Made by a program: the position numbers and the translations under genes. From Minisyncoccota bacterium (lineage in GTDB: Bacteria > Patescibacteriota > Minisyncoccia > Minisyncoccales > CG1-02-41-26), in assembly GCA_028718785.1 (NCBI GenBank), contig JAQULB010000003.1, forward strand, positions 74,228 to 138,227: a DNA stretch of 64,000 nt. Direction: 5' to 3'. Position 1 is the first letter of the stretch; each line of letters begins with the position of its first letter. Below the pieces are notes generated by a model that saw nothing but the letters and a program-made list of their open reading frames with translations, did no database searches and was not told the origin of the DNA. This document shows, in pieces, positions 7,508-49,598 of the stretch.

Positions 7508-7615
7508 AGGGAATTAACCCTATATTTTCTGCGCTTGTTCGGCAATGAAAAAAAAGTTTTCATTGCTCTCACTTCGCTTGAAAATAGATTTACACCGGTC
7601 TTACCAGTGTAAAAA

Positions 7616-7660
7616 CAAAAAATCTCCTGAGCTTGTCGAAGGGGATTTTTTGTTTTATTT
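7616..7660. terminator. Bidirectional hairpin carrying a CCTGAGCTTGTCGAAGG mini-repeat in its loop
   Basis: The stem is AAAAAATCTCC...GGGGATTTTTT with T-runs on both sides. It lies between convergent hup and the NTase gene. Confidence 0.5.
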
Positions 7661-8107
7661 TTTAAATTCTTTAATTTTTTGCAGATAGTATCTATCTTTT
7701 TCTCGGTTATATTTTCCAACCATTAGTTCTTTCCATTCTTGGCAGATGTTTAGATTGGCAAATTTGAAACCATCAACAATAACAGGGTCTTTGAATATTT
7801 TTTCAAAGTATTCTTCTTGCCCTGGCCAAGGCCCCCCAATATCCACGTTAATATTATTTATTGATAATTTGTAAAGTTTTTGCCTTGGATCTTCATGAAA
7901 CAAAACAATTTGAGCGTTGGGCGCGACTATTTCTTCATCTCTTATAGCGATATCTATATCGTTTAATCTGCTTTCTTGATTAAAATCTAAAACTCCCAGT
8001 AGATAAAGAGGAGCTGAACCAAAAATTATGAAATTTGGGCCGATTATTTTTTTTAATTCCGAAAGAGTAGGGTAGATTTTGTTGAAAAATTCTTGATTGA
8101 TTCTCAT
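7655..8107 (-). CDS. Nucleotidyltransferase-fold hypothetical protein
   Basis: The IIFGSAPLYLLG ... LNDIDIAI (G-S ... DxD) pattern fits this fold. The ATG follows the tRNA-Gly 3' end after a single spacer nucleotide. Confidence 0.4.
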   Translation of the reverse strand: MRINQEFFNKIYPTLSELKKIIGPNFIIFGSAPLYLLGVLDFNQESRLNDIDIAIRDEEIVAPNAQIVLFHEDPRQKLYKLSINNINVDIGGPWPGQEEYFEKIFKDPVIVDGFKFANLNICQEWKELMVGKYNREKDRYYLQKIKEFKK

Positions 8108-8108
8108 G

Positions 8109-8180
8109 AGCGGGTGACGGGAATCGAACCCGTGTCATCACTTTGGAAAAGTGAGATAATAGCCGTTATACGACACCCGC
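8109..8180 (-). tRNA. tRNA-Gly(UCC)
   Basis: Manual cloverleaf: acceptor GCGGGTG/CACCCGC, anticodon stem TCACT/AGTGA, anticodon loop TTTCCAA, T arm ACGGG-TTCGATT-CCCGT. No CCA is encoded. Confidence 0.85.
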
Positions 8181-8297: not shown

Positions 8298-8361
8298 AGT
8301 TAAACAATTAGATTTTAGCGGATTTTTGGGTATTTATCAACACCCGTTGATAAAATGATTG

Positions 8362-8370: not shown

Positions 8371-8627
8371 AAGTAATCCGTTAATGAAAGCGAGCTTTTG
8401 AGCGAAGCTTGAATTTACGGATTACTTACCCCGTGAAGTAAGATTTGAGGATTTTTCAAAAAGTGTTTCGTTTTAAGTATTTAATTATTTTTTCTCTTGC
8501 GTAATATTGATAAATTTATTCTCAAATCTTAATTTTAAATTTACTAATTTAAAACTACTTCACAGGGTGTAAGAACTCGTAAATTCACTCGTGGCTAATC
8601 GCCGCTCACTCATTAACGATTTCTAAC
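8370..8627 (+). repeat. Stop-to-start intergenic hairpin-array element, copy 1 (H1+H2+H3)
   Basis: H1 is TAAGTAATCCGT...ACGGATTACTTA (8370-8428). H2 arms are CCCCGTGAAGTA (8429-8440) and TACTTCACAGGGTG (8557-8569). H3 is TAAGAACTCGTAAATTC...CATTAACGATTTCTAAC, ending at the ATG at 8628. Confidence 0.85.
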
Positions 8628-9560: not shown

Positions 9561-9816
9561 TCCGTTATTGAAAGCGAGCCGTCAACCCAGTAGGTCATTC
9601 TACTGAATGAGGCGAAGCTTGAAATTTACGGAGGACTTACCCCGTGGAGTATAAATTTGCTCTGCAAATTTATATTTTAAATTTTTTACTAAAAATTTAA
9701 AATTACTCCACAGGGTGTAAGAATTCGTAAATTCACTCGCCTAGTTAAATGTCCTTCGGGCAATTTCGCTGAAAGCGAAATTATTTAATCGGACTCATTC
9801 ATTAACGATTTCTAAC
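9554..9816 (+). repeat. Intergenic hairpin-array element, copy 2
   Basis: TTAAGTAATCCGTTATTGAAAGCGAGC overlaps the last HK codons and its stop. H2 arms are at 9640-9651 (CCCCGTGGAGTA) and 9704-9717 (TACTCCACAGGGTG). The element ends CATTAACGATTTCTAAC-ATG. Confidence 0.85.
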
Positions 9817-10194: not shown

Positions 10195-10429
10195 GCGATA
10201 GACGAGATTAGAGCTGGTTAACTCTGTGGAGTATTTTTAAATTTTTAGTAAAAAAATTTAAAACAGAAATTTTCTCTGAAAATTTCTACTCCACGGGGTG
10301 TAAGAATTCGTAAATTCATTTCATTCATTAACGACTTAAGGAATATCCCGATTAAACGCTTTATGAGAGAGCGTTTAACAGGATCTAAGAATTCGTAAAT
10401 TCATTTCATTCATTAACGACTTCTAAGAC
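10192..10429 (+). repeat. Intergenic hairpin-array element, copy 3 (variant H1, H3 duplicated)
   Basis: H2 arms are CTCTGTGGAGTA (10222-10233) and TACTCCACGGGGTG (10287-10300). TAAGAATTCGTAAATTCATTTCATTCATTAACGACTT occurs twice. The element ends CTTCTAAGAC-ATG. Confidence 0.8.
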
Positions 10430-12184: not shown

Positions 12185-12409
12185 ATGAGCGTTAAAATTT
12201 TCAAGCTATCAAGCGCTGAAAATTTTATAACGCGAATTTACCCTGTGAAGTAATTTTAAATTTTAATAAATTCAAAATTAAAATTTGTAATCAAATTTTA
12301 CTTCACTGGGGTTTGATAAAAACCCTCATTAAAGGGGTCGCGCTTATACTCGGAGCCACCCCAGCTTTTCACGACTCTCAAGCTCGCCGTTCAAATAAGA
12401 ATTTCTAAT
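12182..12409 (+). repeat. Intergenic hairpin-array element, copy 4 (divergent H3)
   Basis: H1 is TAAATGAGCG...CGCGAATTTA. H2 arms are CCCTGTGAAGTA (12241-12252) and TACTTCACTGGGG (12299-12311). The element ends AAGAATTTCTAAT-ATG. Confidence 0.75.
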
Positions 12410-20653: not shown

Positions 20654-20729
20654 ATTTTTATTTAATATATTTTAGCACACTAAATTTTTATTGAAAATAA
20701 GCCAAAATTTTGATATGATTTCCCTGCAG

Positions 20730-20801
20730 GCCTTCGTAGTTCAACGGATAGAACTTCTCACTCCTAACGAGACGATACAGGTCCGATTCCTGTCGAAGGC
20801 A
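20730..20801 (+). tRNA. tRNA-Arg(CCU)
   Basis: Acceptor GCCTTCG/CGAAGGC, anticodon loop CTCCTAA, T arm ACAGG-TCCGATT-CCTGT. Confidence 0.8.
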
Positions 20802-20802
20802 C

Positions 20803-21147
20803 ATGGGAAAATTTAAAAAATTTGTTTTTCCGTCAGCAACCTTGCTGTTTTCTTTGTGGTTTTCAGCTATTTTTGCTTTGGGTATATTGATTGGCTATAT
20901 CAGCACGCATTTTAGCCATAAAAAAATTACCCATAGCGGAAAAAATAATTCTGTAATTTTAAATTTTGGCAAATGGAAAATTCACTTTCATCATTGGTTG
21001 ATGGGGGCGGTTGCGTTGTTGTCTTGTTGGGCAATGGGAGTGTTGGAAACTTTGCCAAAAATAATTATTGGTATGGCTGGGGGAATGGTTTTCCATGGCT
21101 TGTATTTATACGACAATTGGCATAAAATCATAATGAAAAAGGACTAA
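20803..21147 (+). CDS. Small polytopic membrane protein, function unknown
   Basis: The 114-aa protein has three hydrophobic segments. A single nucleotide separates its ATG from the tRNA-Arg 3' end, and its stop directly abuts tRNA-Ala. Confidence 0.5.
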   Translation: MGKFKKFVFPSATLLFSLWFSAIFALGILIGYISTHFSHKKITHSGKNNSVILNFGKWKIHFHHWLMGAVALLSCWAMGVLETLPKIIIGMAGGMVFHGLYLYDNWHKIIMKKD

Positions 21148-21218
21148 GGGCCCATAGTTCAGTGGTAAAATATCTCTATGGCATAGAGAAGTCGCGAGTC
21201 CGACTCTCGCTGGGTCCA
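21148..21218 (+). tRNA. tRNA-Ala(GGC)
   Basis: The acceptor GGGCCCA/TGGGTCC gives the G3:U70 identity pair. The anticodon loop is ATGGCAT. Confidence 0.8.
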
Positions 21219-21222
21219 CCCA

Positions 21223-21277
21223 AAAACAGACATCCGATGTCTGATAGCTATCAGACATCGGATGTCTGTTTTGTTTT
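21223..21277 (+). terminator. Terminator, long perfect palindrome
   Basis: AACAGACATCCGATGTCTGATAG / CTATCAGACATCGGATGTCTGTT is followed by TTGTTTT. Confidence 0.75.
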
Positions 21278-21330
21278 GACAAAACCGCTTTTTTTAACTA
21301 CAATAGCAATAAATTTGTGGGGAGGATTAT

Positions 21331-21416
21331 GGAGAGGTACCGAAGTGGCTTACCGGAGCGGTTTCGAAAACCGCGTCCCCCTTGGGGACTCGTGAGTTCG
21401 AATCTCACCCTCTCCG
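21331..21416 (+). tRNA. tRNA-Ser(CGA)
   Basis: Acceptor GGAGAGG/CCTCTCC, anticodon loop TTCGAAA, a long variable arm and G73. Confidence 0.85.
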
Positions 21417-21436: not shown

Positions 21437-21949
21437 ATGTTAATAGGAATTATTAGCGACACTCACGATAATGCTATCAATTTATTGAAAGCGGTAAAAA
21501 TTTTTAATGAAAAAAATGTTGGCTTGGTTATTCATTGCGGGGATTGGGTTTCTCCTTTTATGCCGGATTTCTGCGAAAGTTTGGAGGCGAAAGTAATATC
21601 TGTTTGGGGCAATAACGAGGGAGACATCTATCGTTTTTTGACAAGGCAGGAGAAGAAGAAATGGAATATAGAATTTAATAATGTTGCTGTTGAGTTGAAC
21701 ATTGATGATAGAAATCTTATTGCATATCATGGCGACTCAAAGCCGCTCTTGGGAGCGTTAATTGATTCTCAAAAATACGATGCTGTGTTTTCCGGTCACA
21801 CCCATACTGTCTTGAATGAAATGAAAGGGAAAACATTGCATGTGAACCCAGGGTCAACAAGCGGATTGTGCGAGTCAAAGATTACCGATAACATTACAAT
21901 TGCCACTTACAACACAGAGCTTAACAATGCCGAAATTGTTTATTTGTAA
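21437..21949 (+). CDS. YfcE/MJ0936-family metallophosphoesterase
   Basis: The motifs ISDTHDN, HCGDW, GNNEGD and GHTH are present. Confidence 0.8.
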   Translation: MLIGIISDTHDNAINLLKAVKIFNEKNVGLVIHCGDWVSPFMPDFCESLEAKVISVWGNNEGDIYRFLTRQEKKKWNIEFNNVAVELNIDDRNLIAYHGDSKPLLGALIDSQKYDAVFSGHTHTVLNEMKGKTLHVNPGSTSGLCESKITDNITIATYNTELNNAEIVYL

Positions 21950-21956
21950 AATTTTT

Positions 21957-22041
21957 GGAGAGGTACCAAAGAGGATTAATGGGACGGTCCTGAAAACCGT
22001 TGTAGCGCAAGCTACCGCGAGTTCGAATCTCGCCCTCTCCG
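21957..22041 (+). tRNA. tRNA-Ser(UGA)
   Basis: Acceptor GGAGAGG/CCTCTCC, anticodon stem ACGGT/ACCGT. The loop CCTGAAA has an unusual C at position 33. It has a long variable arm and G73. Confidence 0.75.
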
Positions 22042-22081
22042 CAACAAGAAATTTTAGGCATTTTGCCTATAAATTTTTATT

Positions 22082-22179
22082 GGAGATGGGCTATGAGAGA
22101 ACTCGTCCCCGAATTGTCCCGAGCCAGCAGGCGAGGGAGCAATGCCTTCGGGTAAACTCTTCGAACCCCACCCTCTCCG
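22082..22179 (+). pseudogene. Degenerate tRNA-Ser-derived sequence (possible integration scar)
   Basis: The 5' GGAGATGG and the 3' CTCTTCGAACCCCACCCTCTCCG resemble the adjacent tRNA-Ser ends (GAGTTCGAATCTCACCCTCTCCG). The T stem and D arm do not fold. Confidence 0.45.
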
Positions 22180-22199
22180 ATAGCAAGGACGGTTTTTGA

Positions 22200-22332: not shown

Positions 22333-24017
22333 ATGGCAAAAAAAGATTATACAAATTGGGATAGAAAAGAGTTGATCAAAGAGATTGACCAGCTTCGCAA
22401 GCGCAAAAAATATGGGCTTGTTTGGGAAGAAAAACTAGAGGATATTGTCGAACAGTGCAAAACAAAATTACCAGTTTTAGAAGAAGTCAAAGACAAAGAA
22501 ATCAAAACGGATTCTGATAAACCGATGAATTTGTTAATTGAGGGCGACAATTATCATGCCCTTTCAGTTTTGAATTACACCCACAAAGGCAAAATTGATG
22601 TCATTTACATTGATCCACCATATAACACTGGTGCAAAAGATTGGAAATACAACAATGACTATGTAGATATAAATGATCAATGGCGACACAGTAAATGGTT
22701 GTCGTTTATGGAAAAAAGATTAAAACTATCCAAACATCTATTAAAAAGAAATGGTGTTTTGATTTGTACTATCGATAAAAACGAACAGGCAAACTTAGGA
22801 GTTTTATTACAAGAAATATTTAATAAAAAAGAAATCGTTTGTGTAACAATTATCCATAACCCCGGTGGAATTCAAGGGAAAAATTTTTCACACACTAATG
22901 AATTTGCTTATTTTATTCATCCTCTTAATGGTAATTATATTTCTACAATCGCAAGAGATGATGTTCCGCCGACAGCTTTTAGAGATTGGGGCAAACAAAG
23001 TTCAAAAAGAGAAGCTGCAAAAACCTGTTTTTATCCCATATATATAAAAGATGAAAATATAATTGGGTTCGGCGAAGTGTGCCTCGATAATTTTCATCCA
23101 AAAAGTTCAAATAACATAAAGAAAGACGGTATTATAGAAGTTTACCCAGTTGATCAAAAAGGAATTGAGCGCAAATGGCGCTTTGGAAGAGAAACTGTTG
23201 AGGATATAAAAGATGAGTTGATTTGTAAAAAGGTTAAAGGAGAATATCAAATTTTAAGAGAGAAGAAAGATTACAGGTGGAAAACTGTTTGGACTGAAAT
23301 CAAGTATAATGCCAATGTTTACGGAACAAAATTACTTAATAATATTATTGAGTCAAAATTTCCATATCCTAAGTCGGTATATGCAGTAATGGATTGTATA
23401 AAAGCAGTTATCCATGATAATAAGGATTCAACTATTCTGGATTTTTTGCTGGCTCTGGTACTACAGGTCATGCCGTCATGGAACTTAACGAGATTGATAA
23501 GGGAAAAAGGAAATTTATTTTATGCACTAATAATGAAGACAACAACGGTGAAGGTACAAAAATAGCTGATGATATGTGTTATCCGAGGATTGAAAATGTT
23601 ATCAAGGGTTACAAGGGATTACTTGACGGAAAGAAATATCAAGGATTGAAAGGTAATTTAAAATATTTTAGAACCGCTTTTGTTCCTGCCGATCCTACGG
23701 ATAAAAACAAAACAGCTCTTACAAAAAAAGCGACTGATATGCTTTGCGTGAAAGAAGATACTTTTGAAAAAGTTAAATCAAACGAGCAATATGTAATTTT
23801 CGGCAACAAAAAAAGATATACCGGAATTATTTATGATCATCAGGCGATTGATGATTTCAAAAAAGAAATTGCTAAAATTGACGGAAAATTCAGCGTCTAT
23901 GTGTTTTCGCTTGGCGATGATACTTTTGACGAGGAGTTTGAAGACATGAAAAGCAAGGTAAAATTATCACCAATACCAGAAGCAATATTGCGAGTATATC
24001 GCAGAATATTTAAATAA
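22333..24017 (+). pseudogene. mod: Type III R-M DNA methyltransferase (Mod), split by a -1 frameshift in a T6 tract
   Basis: ORF 22333..23565 has DVIYIDPPYNTG. The FxGxG motif (DFFAGSGTTGHAV) is only readable if T6 at 23442-23447 becomes T7, which joins it to ORF 23478..24017. Confidence 0.8.
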
Positions 24018-24028
24018 TTGGAAAAACT

Positions 24029-26242
24029 ATGCAACTAAAAGACTATCAAAATACGGCTATAAAAAAACTTCTCGCAAGAAGCAAGGAATTGCTGGCTCAA
24101 GGCGGAGAAAAGAAAATAATTTTCAAAGCCCCGACTGGTTCTGGCAAAACCATAATGACGGCGGAGTTTTTGAAGCAACTTATTGACGACAAAGAAATTA
24201 AAACTCCTTTATCGTTTATTTGGACGGCTCCAAGAAAATTACACACCCAAAGCAAGGGAAAACTGGAAAAGTATTACGAAGACACACGAGCGATTGAATG
24301 TTCTGATTTTGAGGATTTAGCCGACAAACAAATTGCGGAAAATGAAATTTTGTTCTTGAATTGGGAAAGCATAAACAAGAAAGATAAAAATACTATCGTC
24401 AAAGAAAATGAAAAAGAGTTTTATCTCAGCAAAATTGTTGAAAACACCAAAGACGAGGGACGAGAAATTGTTTTAATCATTGACGAAAGTCATCATCACG
24501 CCACAAGCGATATTTCTCAAGACTTAATCGCAGATATCGCCCCTCGGTTGACGATTGAAGTTTCAGCAACCCCAATTATTCAAAATCCAGATGAAATTGT
24601 CGCTGTGCCTTTGGAAGATGTAAAAATTGAAGGGATGATCAAAAAATCAGTCATCCTTAATCCGAATTTCAAAAACATTTTATCTGGTGATAGTTTAAGA
24701 ACTGCACTTGCTGACGGGACTGATGCAATGGTGCTTGAGGTAGCGTTAAAAAAGAGAGCTGAAATCGCAAAGGCATACCAAGACGCAGGAATAAATATCA
24801 ATCCTCTTTTACTTATTCAATTACCCGATAGAAAAACACAGCAGGAGGACTTGATCAAAGATGAAGTTGTGCGGATTTTGAAAGATAAGTACAAAATGAC
24901 TACCGAAAATGGCAAATTGGCGATTTACTTATCTGAAGAAAAAGAAAATCTGGAAAATATCGCGAAGAACGATCAAGAAACAGAAGTTTTAATTTTCAAA
25001 CAGGCAATCGCTTTGGGCTGGGATTGCCCAAGAGCGCAAATTCTTGTGCTTTTTAGAGATTGGAAGAGCCTGACATTTTCGGTCCAAACAGTCGGGCGGA
25101 TTATGCGTATGCCTGAACCTGACACTGGCCATTATAAACAAGAGATTTTGAATCACGGCTTTGTCTATACCAATCTGACCGATATAGAAATTAAAGAAGA
25201 CATGGCCAGAAATTATGTAACGATTTACACCAGCGATAGAATAGAAAATTACAAACCAATCAAATTGGAATCCGTTTATCGTTTGCGACAAAGAGAAAAA
25301 ACTCGTTTGAGTCCGCAGTTTATCAAGCTTTTTTTGCACGAAGCAAACGAATATGGCTTGGAAAAGAAAATAGAAACTAAAGGGCAAAAATTAGAGCTTT
25401 CTTTGATTTCTGACTATGAAGCAGAAAGCGTTGATAAATTGGCAAATGCAGAAATCAAAGGTGAAGCAAAGATTGATACCAAAAACGAAACCGATTTGCA
25501 AAAACTTTATGATTATTTTGTTCGCAATAATCTCACGCCTTTCTATCCCGAAGACCGATCAATCGGCAGAGTAAAAGAAGCGATTTATTACTTTTTCAAA
25601 ATGCGTTTAGGCATGGAGTATTCTGACCGCTTTTCTGAAATTATCAATATTGTTCTTAGCCCGAAAAATATCCAGCGTTTTGTAAATGTTATTGATAGCA
25701 CGAAAGAAAAATATATTGTCGAAACAAAAAAGCGAGATATTGTATTGCAAAAAACAGCCGACTGGGAATTGCCGGAAATGTTGAATTTTGGCGGAAATTA
25801 TACCGAGCTGAAAACAAAAAAATCGGCAATGCAACCGTTTTATTACGACAATAAATGGAAAACAGAAGAAGCGTTTATTAAATTTCTCGAAAAATCCGAT
25901 CAAGTTGAATGGTGGTATAAAAACGGAGATAGAGACGCAACATTTTTTGCAGTTTTTTACATTGAAAATGGTGAGCAAAAGCCGTTTTATGTAGATTTCA
26001 TTGTACGATTAAAAAATGGTTCTCTTGGACTGTTTGATACAAAAAGCGGAAACACAATAAAAGACGCAAGAGAGAAAAGCGACGGTTTGCAAGATTACTT
26101 GAAAAAACACAAAGAAATTTTCGGTGGAATAGTGGCAAACACCAATTCAAAAGATTTTTCAGGTCGTTGGATGTATTACAAAGAACAAGGTACCGAACTT
26201 AATCCCGATGATTTTTTAAATTGGAAATTGCTGGAAATTTAA
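24029..26242 (+). CDS. res: Type III restriction enzyme Res subunit (SF2 helicase-nuclease)
   Basis: Motif I (KAPTGSGKT) and motif II (IIDESHH) are present. The gene lies immediately downstream of mod. Confidence 0.8.
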   Translation: MQLKDYQNTAIKKLLARSKELLAQGGEKKIIFKAPTGSGKTIMTAEFLKQLIDDKEIKTPLSFIWTAPRKLHTQSKGKLEKYYEDTRAIECSDFEDLADKQIAENEILFLNWESINKKDKNTIVKENEKEFYLSKIVENTKDEGREIVLIIDESHHHATSDISQDLIADIAPRLTIEVSATPIIQNPDEIVAVPLEDVKIEGMIKKSVILNPNFKNILSGDSLRTALADGTDAMVLEVALKKRAEIAKAYQDAGININPLLLIQLPDRKTQQEDLIKDEVVRILKDKYKMTTENGKLAIYLSEEKENLENIAKNDQETEVLIFKQAIALGWDCPRAQILVLFRDWKSLTFSVQTVGRIMRMPEPDTGHYKQEILNHGFVYTNLTDIEIKEDMARNYVTIYTSDRIENYKPIKLESVYRLRQREKTRLSPQFIKLFLHEANEYGLEKKIETKGQKLELSLISDYEAESVDKLANAEIKGEAKIDTKNETDLQKLYDYFVRNNLTPFYPEDRSIGRVKEAIYYFFKMRLGMEYSDRFSEIINIVLSPKNIQRFVNVIDSTKEKYIVETKKRDIVLQKTADWELPEMLNFGGNYTELKTKKSAMQPFYYDNKWKTEEAFIKFLEKSDQVEWWYKNGDRDATFFAVFYIENGEQKPFYVDFIVRLKNGSLGLFDTKSGNTIKDAREKSDGLQDYLKKHKEIFGGIVANTNSKDFSGRWMYYKEQGTELNPDDFLNWKLLEI

Positions 26243-26257
26243 TGCCGTTAGTTTTAT

Positions 26258-28006
26258 ATGAGAATAACTAAACTAGTAATAAAAAATTATCGAAGTTTCG
26301 ACCCTGTGGGGCAAGAGATTTTATTTCCGGCTGTTCACTCTGCCCTTGTTGGAAAGAACAATGCAGGAAAAACTAACATTTTTAATGCGTTAAATTTGGT
26401 TTTGGGCAACAAAAATCCTGCTTATTTAAGATTTGAAGAAGATGACTATTTTGATTCTAGTCAGCCGATAGAAATACAAGTCTTAATTTCGGATATTACC
26501 GCAACAGACAAGAGTCAGATTTTTTCCATTCCAAACCTTACCAAACAACAGCAGGGGGCTTTAAATAGCAAAATCAGTGACGGTACGGCGGATATTACTT
26601 TTTTACTCAGAAAAAACTATGAGTATATTCCCCAAGATGATTCGGACGAAGAATCAGAAAGTAGTCAGGACGCTTTTGAAATAAAACTTTGGGGATTTAA
26701 TGTTTTTAGAAAGAAAGAAGATGCTAGAAAGTCAGTAATAAAAATGCTAATGGTTCCTGCAATAAGAGATTATCAAGATGAGCTTTTAGCTTCTAAATGG
26801 ACGGCATATGGTCAATTGATGAAAGAGGTTTTGGAAAACTCACCACATTATTCCGATATAAAAACTGATCTTTCAAATCTAAATATAAAAATCCAACAGG
26901 TTTTTGAAACAGAAAAAACAAAATTACTCGAAGGAGCACGAATAGTATCGTATGTTGATGATATAAGTTTTCAATTAACAAAAGATAATAGCCCGTCAGA
27001 ATTACTGAGAAATTTGGAAATATTTATAACAGAAGGGTCAAAAAAATTTAATATCGAGTACGTTGGGACAGGCACGCAGAGCGCAATAATTATTGGAATT
27101 TTAGAGTTGGCGTTAAAAAATAAGAGTTCAAAAATTAAACTTTTCTGCATTGAGGAGCCAGAAGCTTTTATACACCCTCACGGAATCAGATATTTAGGCT
27201 CACTGATAAAAAATATATCAAAAGATCAAAATACTCAGATTTTAGTATCAACACATTCCTTATCTCTAACGGCTAATTTTTCACCAAATGAAATTATCAG
27301 GGTAGACAAAATAGATGGGAAAACCGTAATCAAGCAGGATGTATCAATAAGCAATACTCATTTTAGAAGATTTATTCATCAGGATAATGCGGAAATATTT
27401 TTTAGCGACAGAGTTCTCTTTATTGAAGGATCAACAGAAAAACACTTGTTTGGAAATCTTGATAAGCTAACAAAGTTAAATCCAGTCGATCCAAATAGTA
27501 TAAATTGCAATTTTGATCGAATTAATCTTGGCGTAATCAAACTTGATTCTGTTGATTCAATTGTGAATTATGTAAAAATTGCAAAAGCGTTCGGCATTCC
27601 TTATTCAGCCATTGTTGATAGAGATTTTATTGATGATCCGAGCAAACAAAATAAATGTAAGGAGTTGTGCCTAGAGGTGGGGGCAATCTATCAGGTGTCA
27701 GATACAACAAAACTAATCAGCGATTTGAAATCAAAAAATATCGTCATAAATAGCAAGGGGGAGATTGAAGATATTTTTTCTAATCAAGAAATTGCAAATA
27801 TCACCGGCAAACAAATTGCAGATATTCAAGTAGTAAAAGCCAAACACGCCAAAATTAGCAATGCTTTCAAGGAAATATTTAGTGTTGGAAAAGCTGAGTA
27901 TGCAATTGTTATAGCCGATTTTTATTCCCAAAATGCTCAAACACATCCGCTTGATGACATTATTAGAAAGATTTACAATAACAACATCCTGAATATAAGT
28001 ATTTAA
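26258..28006 (+). CDS. OLD-family ATP-dependent nuclease (ABC-type ATPase + Toprim)
   Basis: Walker A is GKNNAGKTN and Walker B is LFCIEEPEAFIHP. The C-terminal Toprim-like motifs are LFIEGSTEKHLF and AIVDRDFID. Confidence 0.7.
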   Translation: MRITKLVIKNYRSFDPVGQEILFPAVHSALVGKNNAGKTNIFNALNLVLGNKNPAYLRFEEDDYFDSSQPIEIQVLISDITATDKSQIFSIPNLTKQQQGALNSKISDGTADITFLLRKNYEYIPQDDSDEESESSQDAFEIKLWGFNVFRKKEDARKSVIKMLMVPAIRDYQDELLASKWTAYGQLMKEVLENSPHYSDIKTDLSNLNIKIQQVFETEKTKLLEGARIVSYVDDISFQLTKDNSPSELLRNLEIFITEGSKKFNIEYVGTGTQSAIIIGILELALKNKSSKIKLFCIEEPEAFIHPHGIRYLGSLIKNISKDQNTQILVSTHSLSLTANFSPNEIIRVDKIDGKTVIKQDVSISNTHFRRFIHQDNAEIFFSDRVLFIEGSTEKHLFGNLDKLTKLNPVDPNSINCNFDRINLGVIKLDSVDSIVNYVKIAKAFGIPYSAIVDRDFIDDPSKQNKCKELCLEVGAIYQVSDTTKLISDLKSKNIVINSKGEIEDIFSNQEIANITGKQIADIQVVKAKHAKISNAFKEIFSVGKAEYAIVIADFYSQNAQTHPLDDIIRKIYNNNILNISI

Positions 28007-30692: not shown

Positions 30693-31027
30693 ATGAGCGC
30701 CCAAGAGCGCGAGCCGTTAGGCGAAGCGTGATTGGTTGGGCGAATTTAACCCCGTGAAGTAAAATTTAATTTTACTAAATTAAATTTTAATCTTAAATTT
30801 TTATTTAAAAATTTAAGATTACTTCACAGGGGTGTGGATAGAAATATAAACAGACCCCAGTTAAGTAGCTCGCTCATCGCTCGCACTTAACGGGGTATAA
30901 GAATTCGTAAATTCATAAGGAAATCCCGATTAACGCTCGCTAAAATCACTCGCGTTAACGGGATGCAAGAACTTCTAAATTTCATAGCTCGCTAATCGCT
31001 CACTATTCAATTAAGAATTTCTAACAC
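30690..31027 (+). repeat. Intergenic hairpin-array element, copy 5 (longest, five hairpins)
   Basis: H1 is TAAATGAGCGCCCAA...TTGGGCGAATTTAA. H2 arms are at 30750-30761 and 30820-30834. Extra hairpins are CCCCAGTTAAGT...ACTTAACGGGG and ATCCCGATTAACGC...GCGTTAACGGGAT. The element ends AAGAATTTCTAACAC-ATG. Confidence 0.85.
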
Positions 31028-36407: not shown

Positions 36408-36628
36408 GTAATCCGTTAATGAAAGCGAGCTTTTGAGCGAAGCTTGAATTTACGGATTACTTACCCCGTGGAGTATAAATTTGCTTTGCAAATTTATATT
36501 TTAAATTCTTATTAAAATCGTCTAATAATTTTAATAAGAATTTAAAATTACTCCACAGGGTGTAAGAACTCGTAAAATCCGCCGCAAATTTTACGAAATA
36601 AATTAGCGGCGAATTAACGATTTCTAAC
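36405..36628 (+). repeat. Intergenic hairpin-array element, copy 6
   Basis: The first 66 nt are identical to copy 1. H2 arms are at 36464-36475 and 36549-36562. H3 has interleaved stems CGTAAAAT/ATTTTACG and CGCCGC/GCGGCG. The element ends TTAACGATTTCTAAC-ATG. Confidence 0.85.
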
Positions 36629-38574: not shown

Positions 38575-39414
38575 ATGATACTCATATATATTGTGGTTTT
38601 TATTTTTGGGTGTTTAATGGGCAGTTTTTTGAATTGCGTTGTTTATAGAATGGAGAATAAAAAAAGTTTTTTGCGAGGCCGGTCTTTTTGCCCAAAATGC
38701 AAGCACACATTGGCTTGGCATGATTTAATTCCAATTTTTAGTTTTTTAAGTTTGAAAGGCAGGTGTAGGTATTGTAAAGAGAAAATAGCTATTCAATATT
38801 TGTTGGTGGAGATGGCAACAGGAGCGCTCTTAATTTTAAATTTTAAGTTTTTAATTTTTAATCAATTTTTTATTTTTAATTTTGAGTTTTTAATTATAAC
38901 CGCATACTTAATTTTAATAAATAGTTTGCTTGTTGTTATTTTCATTTACGATTTAAAACACTATATAATTCCCGATAACATTGTTTTTTCTGCCATAGCG
39001 GTTGCATTTTTGGGTGATTTATTTGGATTTTTTAATTTTAGACATTTGGATTTTTTTAAAAATTTTGATTTTGGATTTAGGATTTTTGAAAATTTTAAAA
39101 TGCCACTTATTGCCGCTATTTCTGCTGGCGGATTCTTTTTTTTAATGTGGTTAATATCTCGTGGTGAGTGGCTGGGTTTTGGCGATGTAAAGCTGGCGTT
39201 ATTTATGGGATTATTTTTGGGCTGGCCCAATGTTTTAACAGCTTTATTTTTTGCTTTTATTTCAGGGTCTGTGATTGGTTTATTTTTAATTGTTGCTCAA
39301 AAAAAGAAAATGAAAAGTCAAGTGCCGTTTGGGCCATTTCTTATTGCTGGAACATTTTTTGCTTTATTTTGGGGAGAGAAAATAATAAATTGGTACTTAG
39401 GACTTATAACATAG
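38575..39414 (+). CDS. pilD: Prepilin peptidase (A24 family)
   Basis: An N-terminal Cys motif (CPKCKH...CRYCKEKI) and the catalytic GFGDVKL context are present. It contains a Phe/Ile/Asn-rich low-complexity insert. Confidence 0.8.
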   Translation: MILIYIVVFIFGCLMGSFLNCVVYRMENKKSFLRGRSFCPKCKHTLAWHDLIPIFSFLSLKGRCRYCKEKIAIQYLLVEMATGALLILNFKFLIFNQFFIFNFEFLIITAYLILINSLLVVIFIYDLKHYIIPDNIVFSAIAVAFLGDLFGFFNFRHLDFFKNFDFGFRIFENFKMPLIAAISAGGFFFLMWLISRGEWLGFGDVKLALFMGLFLGWPNVLTALFFAFISGSVIGLFLIVAQKKKMKSQVPFGPFLIAGTFFALFWGEKIINWYLGLIT

Positions 39415-45742: not shown

Positions 45743-45907
45743 GAACTTTGTTAGAAGTAGCGTCTTAAAGAATGGTTGTCCACAGCTTAAGTCCCGGATT
45801 CTCCGAGGGAACACCATGGCATCCTCTAAGCTATTATTGCGTACTTCTAATAAGAAGTATAACACATAATTTTTAAAAGTAAAGTCAAGAGGATTTATCC
45901 ACAGAGG

Positions 45908-49396: not shown

Positions 49397-49598
49397 ATGA
49401 GTTGTTGGTGAAAGCGAGCTGTTAAGCGAAGCTTGAGCCTATAACGAATTTACCCTGTGAAGTAAATTTAAATTTTTAGCAAAAAATTTAAATTAGAAAT
49501 TTGCTTCACAAATTTCTACTTCACGGGGTGTAAGTATTCGTAAAATTTTTCCGCAAATTTTACGAACAAAATTAGCGGAAAAATTAACGACTACTAAC
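49394..49598 (+). repeat. Intergenic hairpin-array element, copy 9 (between rpoB and rpoC)
   Basis: H1 is TAAATGAGTTGTTGG...CCTATAACGAATTTA. H2 arms are CCCTGTGAAGTA (49453-49464) and TACTTCACGGGGTG (49517-49530). H3 has interleaved stems. The element ends TTAACGACTACTAAC-ATG. Confidence 0.85.

Follow-up and report, generated by a model that had tools for sequence, protein, structure and literature searches.

Where does a messenger RNA begin when its start codon lies directly behind a transfer RNA (tRNA) gene? The question is raised by a stretch of 64,000 nucleotides (nt) from a Minisyncoccota bacterium (assembly GCA_028718785.1, contig JAQULB010000003.1, positions 74,228 to 138,227), called here the window, in which the gene of a small membrane protein of 114 amino acids (aa) is enclosed between tRNA-Arg(CCU) and tRNA-Ala, and the gene of a 150-aa protein with a predicted nucleotidyltransferase (NTase) fold starts behind tRNA-Gly. 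An original prediction had proposed that such genes are punctuated by tRNAs, and that their mRNAs, once RNase P and RNase Z had processed the tRNAs, would be essentially leaderless, as in mitochondria. We found that the abutment of tRNAs and coding sequences (CDSs) is conserved and general in this radiation, the Patescibacteria or candidate phyla radiation (CPR). Its best explanation, to which we assign a probability of about 0.6, is that tRNA-mRNA co-transcripts would be cut by the enzymes of tRNA end processing into leaderless or nearly leaderless mRNAs.

The tRNA genes, eight in the window, were called with ARAGORN and Rfam, and the junctions were then read directly in the sequence (Table 1). 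ARAGORN extends its calls by one base beyond the discriminator, and the differences of one base between the tools are due to this; the Rfam ends agree with those given in the original prediction. The boundaries on which that prediction relied (tRNA-Arg 20801, ATG 20803, TAA 21147, tRNA-Ala 21148, tRNA-Gly 8109 and ATG 8107) are exact to the base, and the single C that it placed between discriminator and ATG can be read at both junctions, ...CGAAGGC-A-C-ATG for tRNA-Arg and, on the minus strand, ...CACCCGC-T-C-ATG for tRNA-Gly. A third gene, encoding a 170-aa phosphoesterase, had been presented as likewise sandwiched between two tRNA-Ser genes. Its placement holds, with spacers of 20 and 7 nt, but it makes a weaker case, having a 20-nt leader and being a lineage-specific insertion. 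These two spacers are unremarkable, because 6-25 nt are normal between co-directional genes of the window; the unusual class is that of 0-3 nt. In L001-L006 (related loci are numbered with an L) the two tRNA-Ser genes have only 19 nt and no gene between them, and the phosphoesterase is therefore a recent insertion in the lineage of the window. Searches with Rfam between 20600 and 22400, at gathering thresholds and at permissive E-values, returned only tRNAs. Elsewhere in the window the sole Rfam match other than tRNAs is a DUF3800-V RNA (RF02964, 74.5 bits) at 45753-45848 on the minus strand.

Table 1. Genes, spacers and predicted signals at the tRNA-CDS junctions, in window positions
Feature	Position	Strand	Remarks
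Promoter-like TTGAAA-17 nt-TATGAT, TG extension	20691-20719	+	10/12; 10 nt upstream of tRNA-Arg(CCU)
tRNA-Arg(CCU)	20730-20801	+	ARAGORN, Rfam 60.1 bits; discriminator A at 20801; CCA not encoded
Single C	20802	+	Between tRNA-Arg(CCU) discriminator and ATG at 20803; C74 flank position
114-aa CDS	20803-21147	+	Small membrane protein; TAA at 21145-21147
tRNA-Ala(GGC)	21148-21218	+	ARAGORN, Rfam; 0 nt after TAA of 114-aa CDS; begins GGGCCC
Terminator-like 20-bp hairpin and T-rich tract	21226-21279	+	Directly after tRNA-Ala; closes tRNA-Arg/CDS/tRNA-Ala unit
Promoter-like TTGACA-17 nt-TACAAT	21276-21304	+	11/12; upstream of tRNA-Ser(CGA)
tRNA-Ser(CGA)	21331-21416	+	ARAGORN, Rfam
170-aa CDS, YfcE-family metallophosphoesterase (by sequence match)	21437-21949	+	20-nt A-rich spacer after tRNA-Ser(CGA); no Shine-Dalgarno motif
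tRNA-Ser(UGA)	21957-22041	+	ARAGORN, Rfam; 7 nt past phosphoesterase stop
Weak terminator-like hairpin, T-rich tail	22055-22079	+	After tRNA-Ser(UGA)
Promoter-like TTGATA-17 nt-TAAAAT	8312-8340	-	10/12; upstream of tRNA-Pro
tRNA-Pro(UGG)	8253-8182	-	ARAGORN, Rfam; one base from tRNA-Gly
tRNA-Gly(UCC)	8180-8109	-	ARAGORN, Rfam; discriminator U at 8109
Single C	8108	-	Between tRNA-Gly discriminator and ATG at 8107
150-aa CDS, predicted NTase fold	7655-8107	-	ORF list and homologues
Terminator region after NTase-fold CDS	7589-7650	-	Imperfect hairpin and T-run 7650-7611; called 11-bp hairpin 7613-7589

The junctions of the window recur in its relatives. Between tRNA-Arg(CCU) and the ATG of the 114-aa gene there is no nucleotide in L022, L024, L027, L029/L007 and L030, one in the window and L099 (C) and in L023/L001 (T), and ten in L025/L003, and the abutment is kept despite diverged tRNA sequences and a protein identity that falls to about 65%. 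At the other end of the gene, tRNA-Ala directly follows the stop codon (0 nt) in the window, L029 and L099. The orthologous frame of L023 lacks a stop codon and is closed by the TAG that positions 8-10 of tRNA-Ala provide; the whole chain of this locus runs as a 209-aa CDS, 5 nt, tRNA-Arg, 1 nt, a 116-aa CDS, -10 nt, tRNA-Ala, 12 nt and an EamA CDS, with promoter-like sites before the first CDS and after the last one and none predicted inside. As for the NTase-fold gene, its ATG follows tRNA-Gly after 1 nt in the window (C), 2 nt in L020/L021 (CC) and 8 nt in L019 (CTGCTAAA), the tRNA-Pro/tRNA-Gly pair being kept in L019 and L020/L021; in the latter the encoded CCA shares its A with the ATG. 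The expectation that distant homologues of this protein also follow tRNAs was rejected: those with 50-62% identity lie behind protein genes with no tRNA nearby, and the junction is limited to the close clade. The 114-aa family is almost always found within a tRNA cluster. One subfamily follows tRNA-Trp(CCA) with spacers of 1, 3, 6 or 13 nt, other members follow tRNA-Gly or tRNA-Leu at 18-19 nt, and others lie 58-340 nt behind tRNA-Arg(CCU) and about 80 nt ahead of tRNA-Ser(CGA). The tRNA neighbours of the family vary across Paceibacterota, Nealsonbacteria, Staskawiczbacteria and others, and two Dehalococcoidia carry the family too.

Are the reading frames at these junctions real genes? The original prediction depended on the 114-aa and 150-aa open reading frames (ORFs) having homologues, and we found 16 and 38 of them respectively, with conserved N-termini. 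Identities in the 114-aa family range from 36 to 88%, the motif GKW.H.HHW (G-K-W-x-x-H-x-H-H-W) and a further G and W are invariant, and the N-terminus, MGKFKK followed by a hydrophobic transmembrane helix, is conserved and aligns at the junction ATG. Relatives of this protein, which has no Pfam or NCBIfam family, also occur in 76 metagenome loci and 18 genome loci. One homologue of the 150-aa protein, from a Candidatus Pacebacteria metagenome-assembled genome (MAG), is 100% identical to it, and N-terminal extensions are few in this family, one of them (P0019) being a read-through of the upstream tRNA-Gly gene; both P0019 and P0008 are gene-caller artefacts in which the ORF runs through the tRNA into the same ATG. 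Profile searches of Pfam, NCBIfam and PDB gave no match for the 150-aa protein, and matches came from fold comparison alone. The AlphaFold2 model (pLDDT 94.3) retrieved with Foldseek, as the best match, the putative nucleotidyltransferase TM1012 (4.7e-5, TM 0.59) and also chain 8an5_B of the MenAT1 toxin-antitoxin complex (2.5e-3), and a G-S...D-x-D motif (FGSAP...NDIDIA) is invariant in the alignment. The model thus points to a Pol-beta-type NTase fold, in agreement with the label originally given to this protein. The 170-aa protein, judged by its matches to Pfam Metallophos_2 (1.8e-29, 103 bits, cut-off 27) and TIGR00040 yfcE (1.7e-25, 89.9 bits, cut-off 56.25), belongs to the YfcE/MJ0936 metallophosphoesterases. 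Other start codons were considered and rejected, the next in-frame ATG of the 114-aa ORF being at about residue 67 and the 150-aa ORF having no plausible alternative. In L098 (10001-10345, MAG JAUSHZ010000033) the 114-aa orthologue is interrupted in frame by a stop at codon 40, a position occupied by Lys in all the others; this copy is either a pseudogene or an assembly error.

The abutment is not restricted to these genes. A survey of tRNA-to-ATG distances, as recommended with the original prediction, was run on the window and 114 related loci, with ARAGORN applied to every locus, 3' ends refined by acceptor-stem pairing, and the distance measured from the discriminator to the next co-directional ATG-ORF with 60 aa or more. 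An ORF of this kind starts 0-3 nt past the discriminator in 24 of 270 distinct Patescibacteria tRNAs; counting over every position of the same DNA, 2.97 would be expected (binomial 9e-15). The significance is inflated by orthologous junctions, which are not independent, though at least six unrelated tRNA/gene pairings are included. Spacer lengths of the pooled junctions peak at 0-3 nt with no smooth decay. Among the pairings, tRNA-Ser(CGA) precedes a GH18 protein with a signal peptide (spacer C, CC or CCA), tRNA-Val(GAC) an RluA-type pseudouridine synthase (CC) and tRNA-Leu(UAA) a LAGLIDADG protein (CA). Junctions of 6-12 nt precede DUF4015, NTPase_I-T, ZIP and EamA genes, with 9 nt from tRNA-Ala to NTPase_I-T and 10 nt from tRNA-Leu to ZIP. 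The called start codons are supported by the signal peptide at the N-terminus of the GH18 protein and, in the pseudouridine synthase and NTPase_I-T, by Pfam domains that begin at most about 10 residues from the ATG. Every junction gene starts with ATG and has the tRNA acceptor stem as its upstream sequence, with no Shine-Dalgarno (SD) motif. As in L020/L021, the encoded CCA shares its A with the ATG in L058, L110 and L111.

Two further features of these tRNA genes deserve mention. Directly behind the discriminator, 252 of the 270 (93%) have a C, and the base that follows it is A in 52% and C in 33%, so that 'CA' is the commonest flank, and the full CCA is encoded in 29%; this pattern suggests an unusual rule of 3' processing or CCA repair in Patescibacteria. 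We also considered whether the spacers, as prefixes of CCA, imply a cut at the AUG, and rejected this: they are mostly such prefixes, with no enrichment over the background (C74 93%, CCA 29%). The second feature is the group of CDSs that lack their own stop codon and end, with a 10-nt overlap, at the TAG of tRNA positions 8-10 (U8-A9-G10). It comprises three cases with tRNA-Ala (L023 4342, L024 1421 and L098 11080) and others in L062 (tRNA-Gly), L083 (tRNA-Thr) and L110 (tRNA-Arg UCU). Spurious ORFs read through by chance may account for some of these cases; the one in L023 is a bona fide 114-aa orthologue.

How would such genes be expressed? A scan for matches to the sigma-70-type consensus, that is, predictions from motifs in A+T-rich DNA, placed the promoters of the window units only 5' of the first tRNA, and predicted terminators lie only 3' of each block. 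The promoter upstream of tRNA-Arg(CCU) is conserved where this tRNA is the first of its unit, the same sequence being kept upstream of the orthologous tRNA-Arg in L022, L027, L029 and L098, and L023 has a 12/12 promoter-like site at the place equivalent to window 21276-21304. From this layout we infer that each block would be one transcription unit, read from the tRNA promoter and made up of promoter, tRNA or tRNAs, CDS, optional tRNA and terminator. RNase P would cut at the 5' end of the downstream tRNA, and the upstream one would be cut at or just past its discriminator by a 3' endonuclease; since only 29% of the tRNA genes encode CCA, this enzyme is most likely RNase Z. RNase Z leaves the trailer with a 5'-phosphate. 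The monocistronic mRNA released by these cuts would carry a 5'-monophosphate and begin 0-3 nt ahead of its AUG; the mRNA of the 114-aa protein would also end at its stop codon. Leaderless initiation requires a 5'-terminal AUG, and initiation on these mRNAs would have to be of that kind, by a 70S ribosome or by IF2-fMet-tRNA on the terminal AUG. If the tRNA stayed attached, ordinary loading of the 30S subunit would be blocked by its structured, G+C-rich acceptor/T arm, which immediately precedes the AUG. SD motifs are almost absent across the genes of the window, whose upstream regions are A/T-rich; initiation independent of SD is therefore the norm here, and the lack of SD is not specific to the junction genes.

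Several observations weigh against this explanation. The promoter scan found 21 promoter-like matches where 12 are expected from shuffling, which makes it suggestive in strength. Among the ORFs of the 64-kb window there is no RNase Z-type HxHxDH motif, and no genes for RNase P or the CCA-adding enzyme were seen within it. Processing of the E. coli type, in which an endonuclease cuts downstream of the tRNA and exonucleases trim its 3' end, would destroy the 5' end of the mRNA. The idea that junction mRNAs have unusually unstructured 5' coding regions was rejected, the trend being the opposite: over the first 40 nt, the median minimum free energy is -4.2 kcal/mol in 15 junction genes vs -1.1 in 47 other genes of the window, values that are small in absolute terms and drawn from a set in which 7 of the 15 junction genes are orthologues. 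In Caulobacter each extra 5' nucleotide about halves leaderless initiation (PMC8459731), so that spacers of 1-10 nt would carry a high cost if the cut did not fall exactly at the AUG. Where the stop codon lies inside the downstream tRNA (L023, L024, L098 and others), a cut by RNase P would make a non-stop mRNA, so that at least some translation would take place on unprocessed RNA. Finally, the sharing of CCA and AUG, together with stops within the next tRNA, makes tRNA maturation and an intact mRNA mutually exclusive on some molecules.

These last points lead to the alternative that survives best, although we consider it unlikely. According to it the abutment is a by-product of compaction, in which the deletion bias of a tiny genome pressed tRNAs and CDSs together; a transcript would either give tRNAs, at the expense of its mRNA ends, or be translated with the tRNA attached or partly unfolded, and no dedicated leaderless mRNA would exist. 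In this sense, operon-internal spacers between CDSs of the window are also short (-4 to 25 nt), and the stops inside the next tRNA (L023, L024, L098, L062, L083 and L110) need unprocessed RNA to terminate translation. Where CCA and ATG share an A (L020, L058, L110 and L111), a tRNA with its encoded CCA and an mRNA with its AUG exclude each other as products of one molecule, and the 5' coding regions show no optimisation of accessibility. However, a folded tRNA 0-1 nt before the AUG leaves no single-stranded segment for the 30S subunit or for standby binding, and the spacers form a spike at 0-3 nt and not a smooth decay. The abutment is also kept down to about 65% protein identity next to diverged tRNAs, and it arose with at least six different tRNA/gene pairs.

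Processing of co-transcripts has also to be weighed against the use of tRNA genes as targets of mobile DNA, in which case adjacency would be a trace of the arrival of the genes and not of their mode of expression. Several observations fit this. The phosphoesterase is absent between the tRNA-Ser genes of relatives, LAGLIDADG and HTH endonuclease-like genes sit in the tRNA clusters of L024, L098, L055, L107 and L090, GC-rich palindromic inserts occur in some tRNA-CDS spacers (L089 vs L090), a putative restriction-modification (R-M) island and a tRNA-Ser-like remnant follow tRNA-Ser(UGA), and the distant NTase-fold homologues are found in unrelated contexts free of tRNAs. Nevertheless, the ORF list and the Pfam scan showed no integrase-like ORF beside the 114-aa, 150-aa or phosphoesterase genes, and no att-type direct repeat flanks the first two. 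The tRNA-Arg/114-aa pair is vertically inherited with synteny (pilM, an htrA-like protease and tRNA-Arg(UCU)/His), and housekeeping genes, such as those of the pseudouridine synthase, the ZIP transporter and NTPase_I-T, abut tRNAs too. We regard this alternative as improbable as a full account; at best it explains the origin of the junctions and not the use of a leaderless AUG, and it is compatible with the processing of co-transcripts.

Small genes have been inserted into the tRNA clusters of this clade at 21437-21949 of the window, L024 (about 700-1420), L098 (10391-11089), L055 (6731-7423), L107 and L090 (410-997), and in relatives LAGLIDADG and HTH endonuclease-like genes adjoin tRNA-Ala, tRNA-Leu and tRNA-Tyr. 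In the window, an element of about 100 nt (22081-22182, plus strand) separates tRNA-Ser(UGA) from the putative R-M genes. It has ends (GGAGATGG...TTCGAACCCCACCCTCTCCG) similar to the acceptor/T arm of a tRNA-Ser and folds into a long imperfect hairpin (-41 kcal/mol, z = -2.5); it was called neither by ARAGORN nor by Rfam, was not found in the related loci fetched, and could be a tRNA remnant, an att scar or a divergent small RNA. The gene block that follows the tRNA-Ser pair (22333-28006, plus strand) opens with an ORF that has an N6_N4 DNA methylase domain. The methylase seems to be divided between two overlapping ORFs (22333-23565 and 23478-24017), pointing to a frameshift, and is followed by two large ORFs of 737 and 582 aa; the methylase match makes the block a candidate R-M island. 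Short GC-rich palindromic repeats, in addition, occur in tRNA leaders and in tRNA-tRNA and tRNA-CDS spacers, at about 8300-8258 and about 7650-7617 of the window (minus strand), at 765-870 of L020, in L089 vs L090, in L085 and in L083, examples being CCTTCGACAAGCTCAGG in the window and GCCGAAGCCTTGGCGAAGGCGAGC... in relatives. Their behaviour is like that of MITE/REP-type elements, and one such insert turns a junction of 3 nt into one of 74 nt (L090 against L089).

Separate transcripts, with the promoter of the CDS inside the upstream tRNA gene or with a start codon further downstream, are very improbable. Weak 9/12 matches are scattered along the DNA, for example at 20860-20888 and 20966-20994 within the 114-aa ORF, and the lineages with spacers of 58-340 nt probably have promoters of their own. 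But independent internal promoters, which the original prediction had named among the findings that would overturn it, were not predicted within the tRNA-Arg, tRNA-Gly or tRNA-Ser(CGA) genes, and a spacer of 0-1 nt leaves no space for a promoter or a leader between tRNA and CDS. A -10 element for a start at the AUG would fall in the acceptor/T stem, whose sequences (TGTCGA and CCGCTC) mismatch TANNNT. Starting the 114-aa protein at the ATG near residue 67 would remove the conserved first transmembrane helix and the motif, and the N-termini across families align at the junction ATG. The remaining alternative, that the junctions are chance ORFs beside tRNAs, could appeal to the missing Pfam and NCBIfam families of the 114-aa and 150-aa proteins and to the interrupted L098 orthologue, but it is effectively refuted by homology, namely by the 16 and 38 homologues reaching down to 36-46% identity with invariant motifs, the additional 76 metagenome and 18 genome loci, the confident NTase-fold model (pLDDT 94) and the clear assignment of the third ORF to the YfcE phosphodiesterases.

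Other sequences in front of start codons were noticed in the window. A few genes, for example that of HU (7226) and those at 38575 and 39434, have a TATAAT-like hexamer that ends about 7 nt before the ATG, and leaderless mRNAs made by promoters may also exist in this organism. A leader of 70-130 nt occurs in eight copies, each ending exactly at a start codon, seven on the plus strand (8500-8627, 9689-9816, 10302-10429, 12282-12409, 30900-31027, 36501-36628 and 49471-49598) and one on the minus strand (61379-61506). Its consensus is TTCACAGGGTGTAAGAAyTCGTAAATTC, a variable GC-rich hairpin and TTCATTAACGAyTTCTAAC, directly followed by the ATG. The conserved arms are imperfect inverted repeats (12/15 pairs), and the 15 nt before the AUG would therefore be paired. 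The leader precedes unrelated genes, those of a histidine kinase, a response regulator, PilB, two PilC, a GspL-like protein, RpoC, where it sits in the rpoB-rpoC spacer, and SSB, and it is also found before an ATG in L022, L024 and L098. It has no Rfam family and may be a new intercistronic element of processing or translation.

Returning to the processing of tRNA-mRNA co-transcripts, a wider reading can be offered tentatively, with somewhat less than even odds. In Patescibacteria tRNA 3' maturation would routinely double as mRNA 5' maturation, one cut giving both products at about one tenth of the tRNAs; at some junctions the sharing of CCA and AUG and the U8-A9-G10 stops would make the production of tRNA and mRNA compete on the same molecule; and the arrangement would be the first equivalent in bacteria of the tRNA punctuation of organelles, having evolved independently as genomes were reduced. 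If this is true, the mitochondrial solution for compacted genomes, with tRNAs as processing signals and mRNAs translated without a leader, arose independently in a large radiation of bacteria with tiny genomes, and the supply of tRNAs is predicted to compete directly with the expression of the embedded genes. The junctions also offer a testable handle on translation initiation in CPR bacteria, which are largely without SD motifs and hard to culture. Furthermore, they matter for annotation: gene callers give such genes a wrong start or extend them through the tRNA (P0008 and P0019), and pipelines that forbid contact or overlap between CDS and tRNA will miss or truncate them.

In the open-access texts that we searched, CDSs abutting tRNAs are not described as a source of leaderless mRNA in bacteria, and the arrangement is best placed by comparison with four known systems. 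In E. coli, thrU-tyrU-glyT-thrT-tufB is a mixed tRNA-mRNA operon. The bacterial operons secG-leuU and metT (PMC2241853) are of the same mixed type. As in these operons, tRNAs and a protein gene would share a promoter, and nucleases of tRNA processing would separate the parts. Unlike here, the CDS of the classical operons lies tens to about 100 nt from the tRNA and keeps its own 5' untranslated region with a ribosome-binding site, while the spacers of 0-3 nt at the Patescibacteria junctions leave no room for such a site. The classical layout is present in our set in two Dehalococcoidia loci, where tRNA-Thr is followed by tuf with 38 nt between them (L113).

Another parallel is offered by t-elements, which resemble tRNAs in structure and set the ends of mRNAs in plant mitochondria and Haloferax volcanii. 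Haloferax t-elements have been put to use as a processing tool (PMC4946936). In both situations the recognition of tRNA shape by RNase P and RNase Z would set the terminus of an mRNA, and the haloarchaeal product can be leaderless. The t-elements are dedicated mimics, whereas the tRNAs of our junctions are ordinary and presumably functional, with standard anticodons and identity elements, such as G3:U70 in tRNA-Ala. As for the mRNAs themselves, the leaderless ones of Mycobacterium (PMC4633059) and Caulobacter (PMC8459731) are made by starting transcription at the start codon. They resemble the mRNAs proposed here in the 5'-terminal AUG, the strong preference for AUG, the lack of SD and an initiation that is presumably of the 70S type, but theirs are primary ends with a triphosphate, and here a processed end with a monophosphate is proposed.

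The closest analogue is the one already drawn on in the original prediction, the tRNA punctuation of mitochondria (Ojala, Montoya and Attardi 1981, as cited in PMC10941002). The likeness claimed for it stands as far as the flanking of CDSs by tRNAs of the same strand with 0-1 nt is concerned, and here too the excision of tRNAs by RNase P and RNase Z would free leaderless mRNAs that start at or beside the AUG, with 0 or very few bases between tRNA and CDS. It does not extend to stop codons completed by polyadenylation, since those of the junction genes are complete (TAA) or lie as TAG within the next tRNA, and the frames do not end at a partial T or TA. The units also differ: here they are short, with one to three CDSs each, and not a polycistron of genome length, each has a predicted sigma-70-type promoter and a predicted intrinsic terminator, and about 10% of the sampled tRNAs are involved. 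What the two share, in an organelle on one side and in a free-standing bacterial lineage on the other, is the setting of a protein gene between tRNAs whose excision would define where its message begins.

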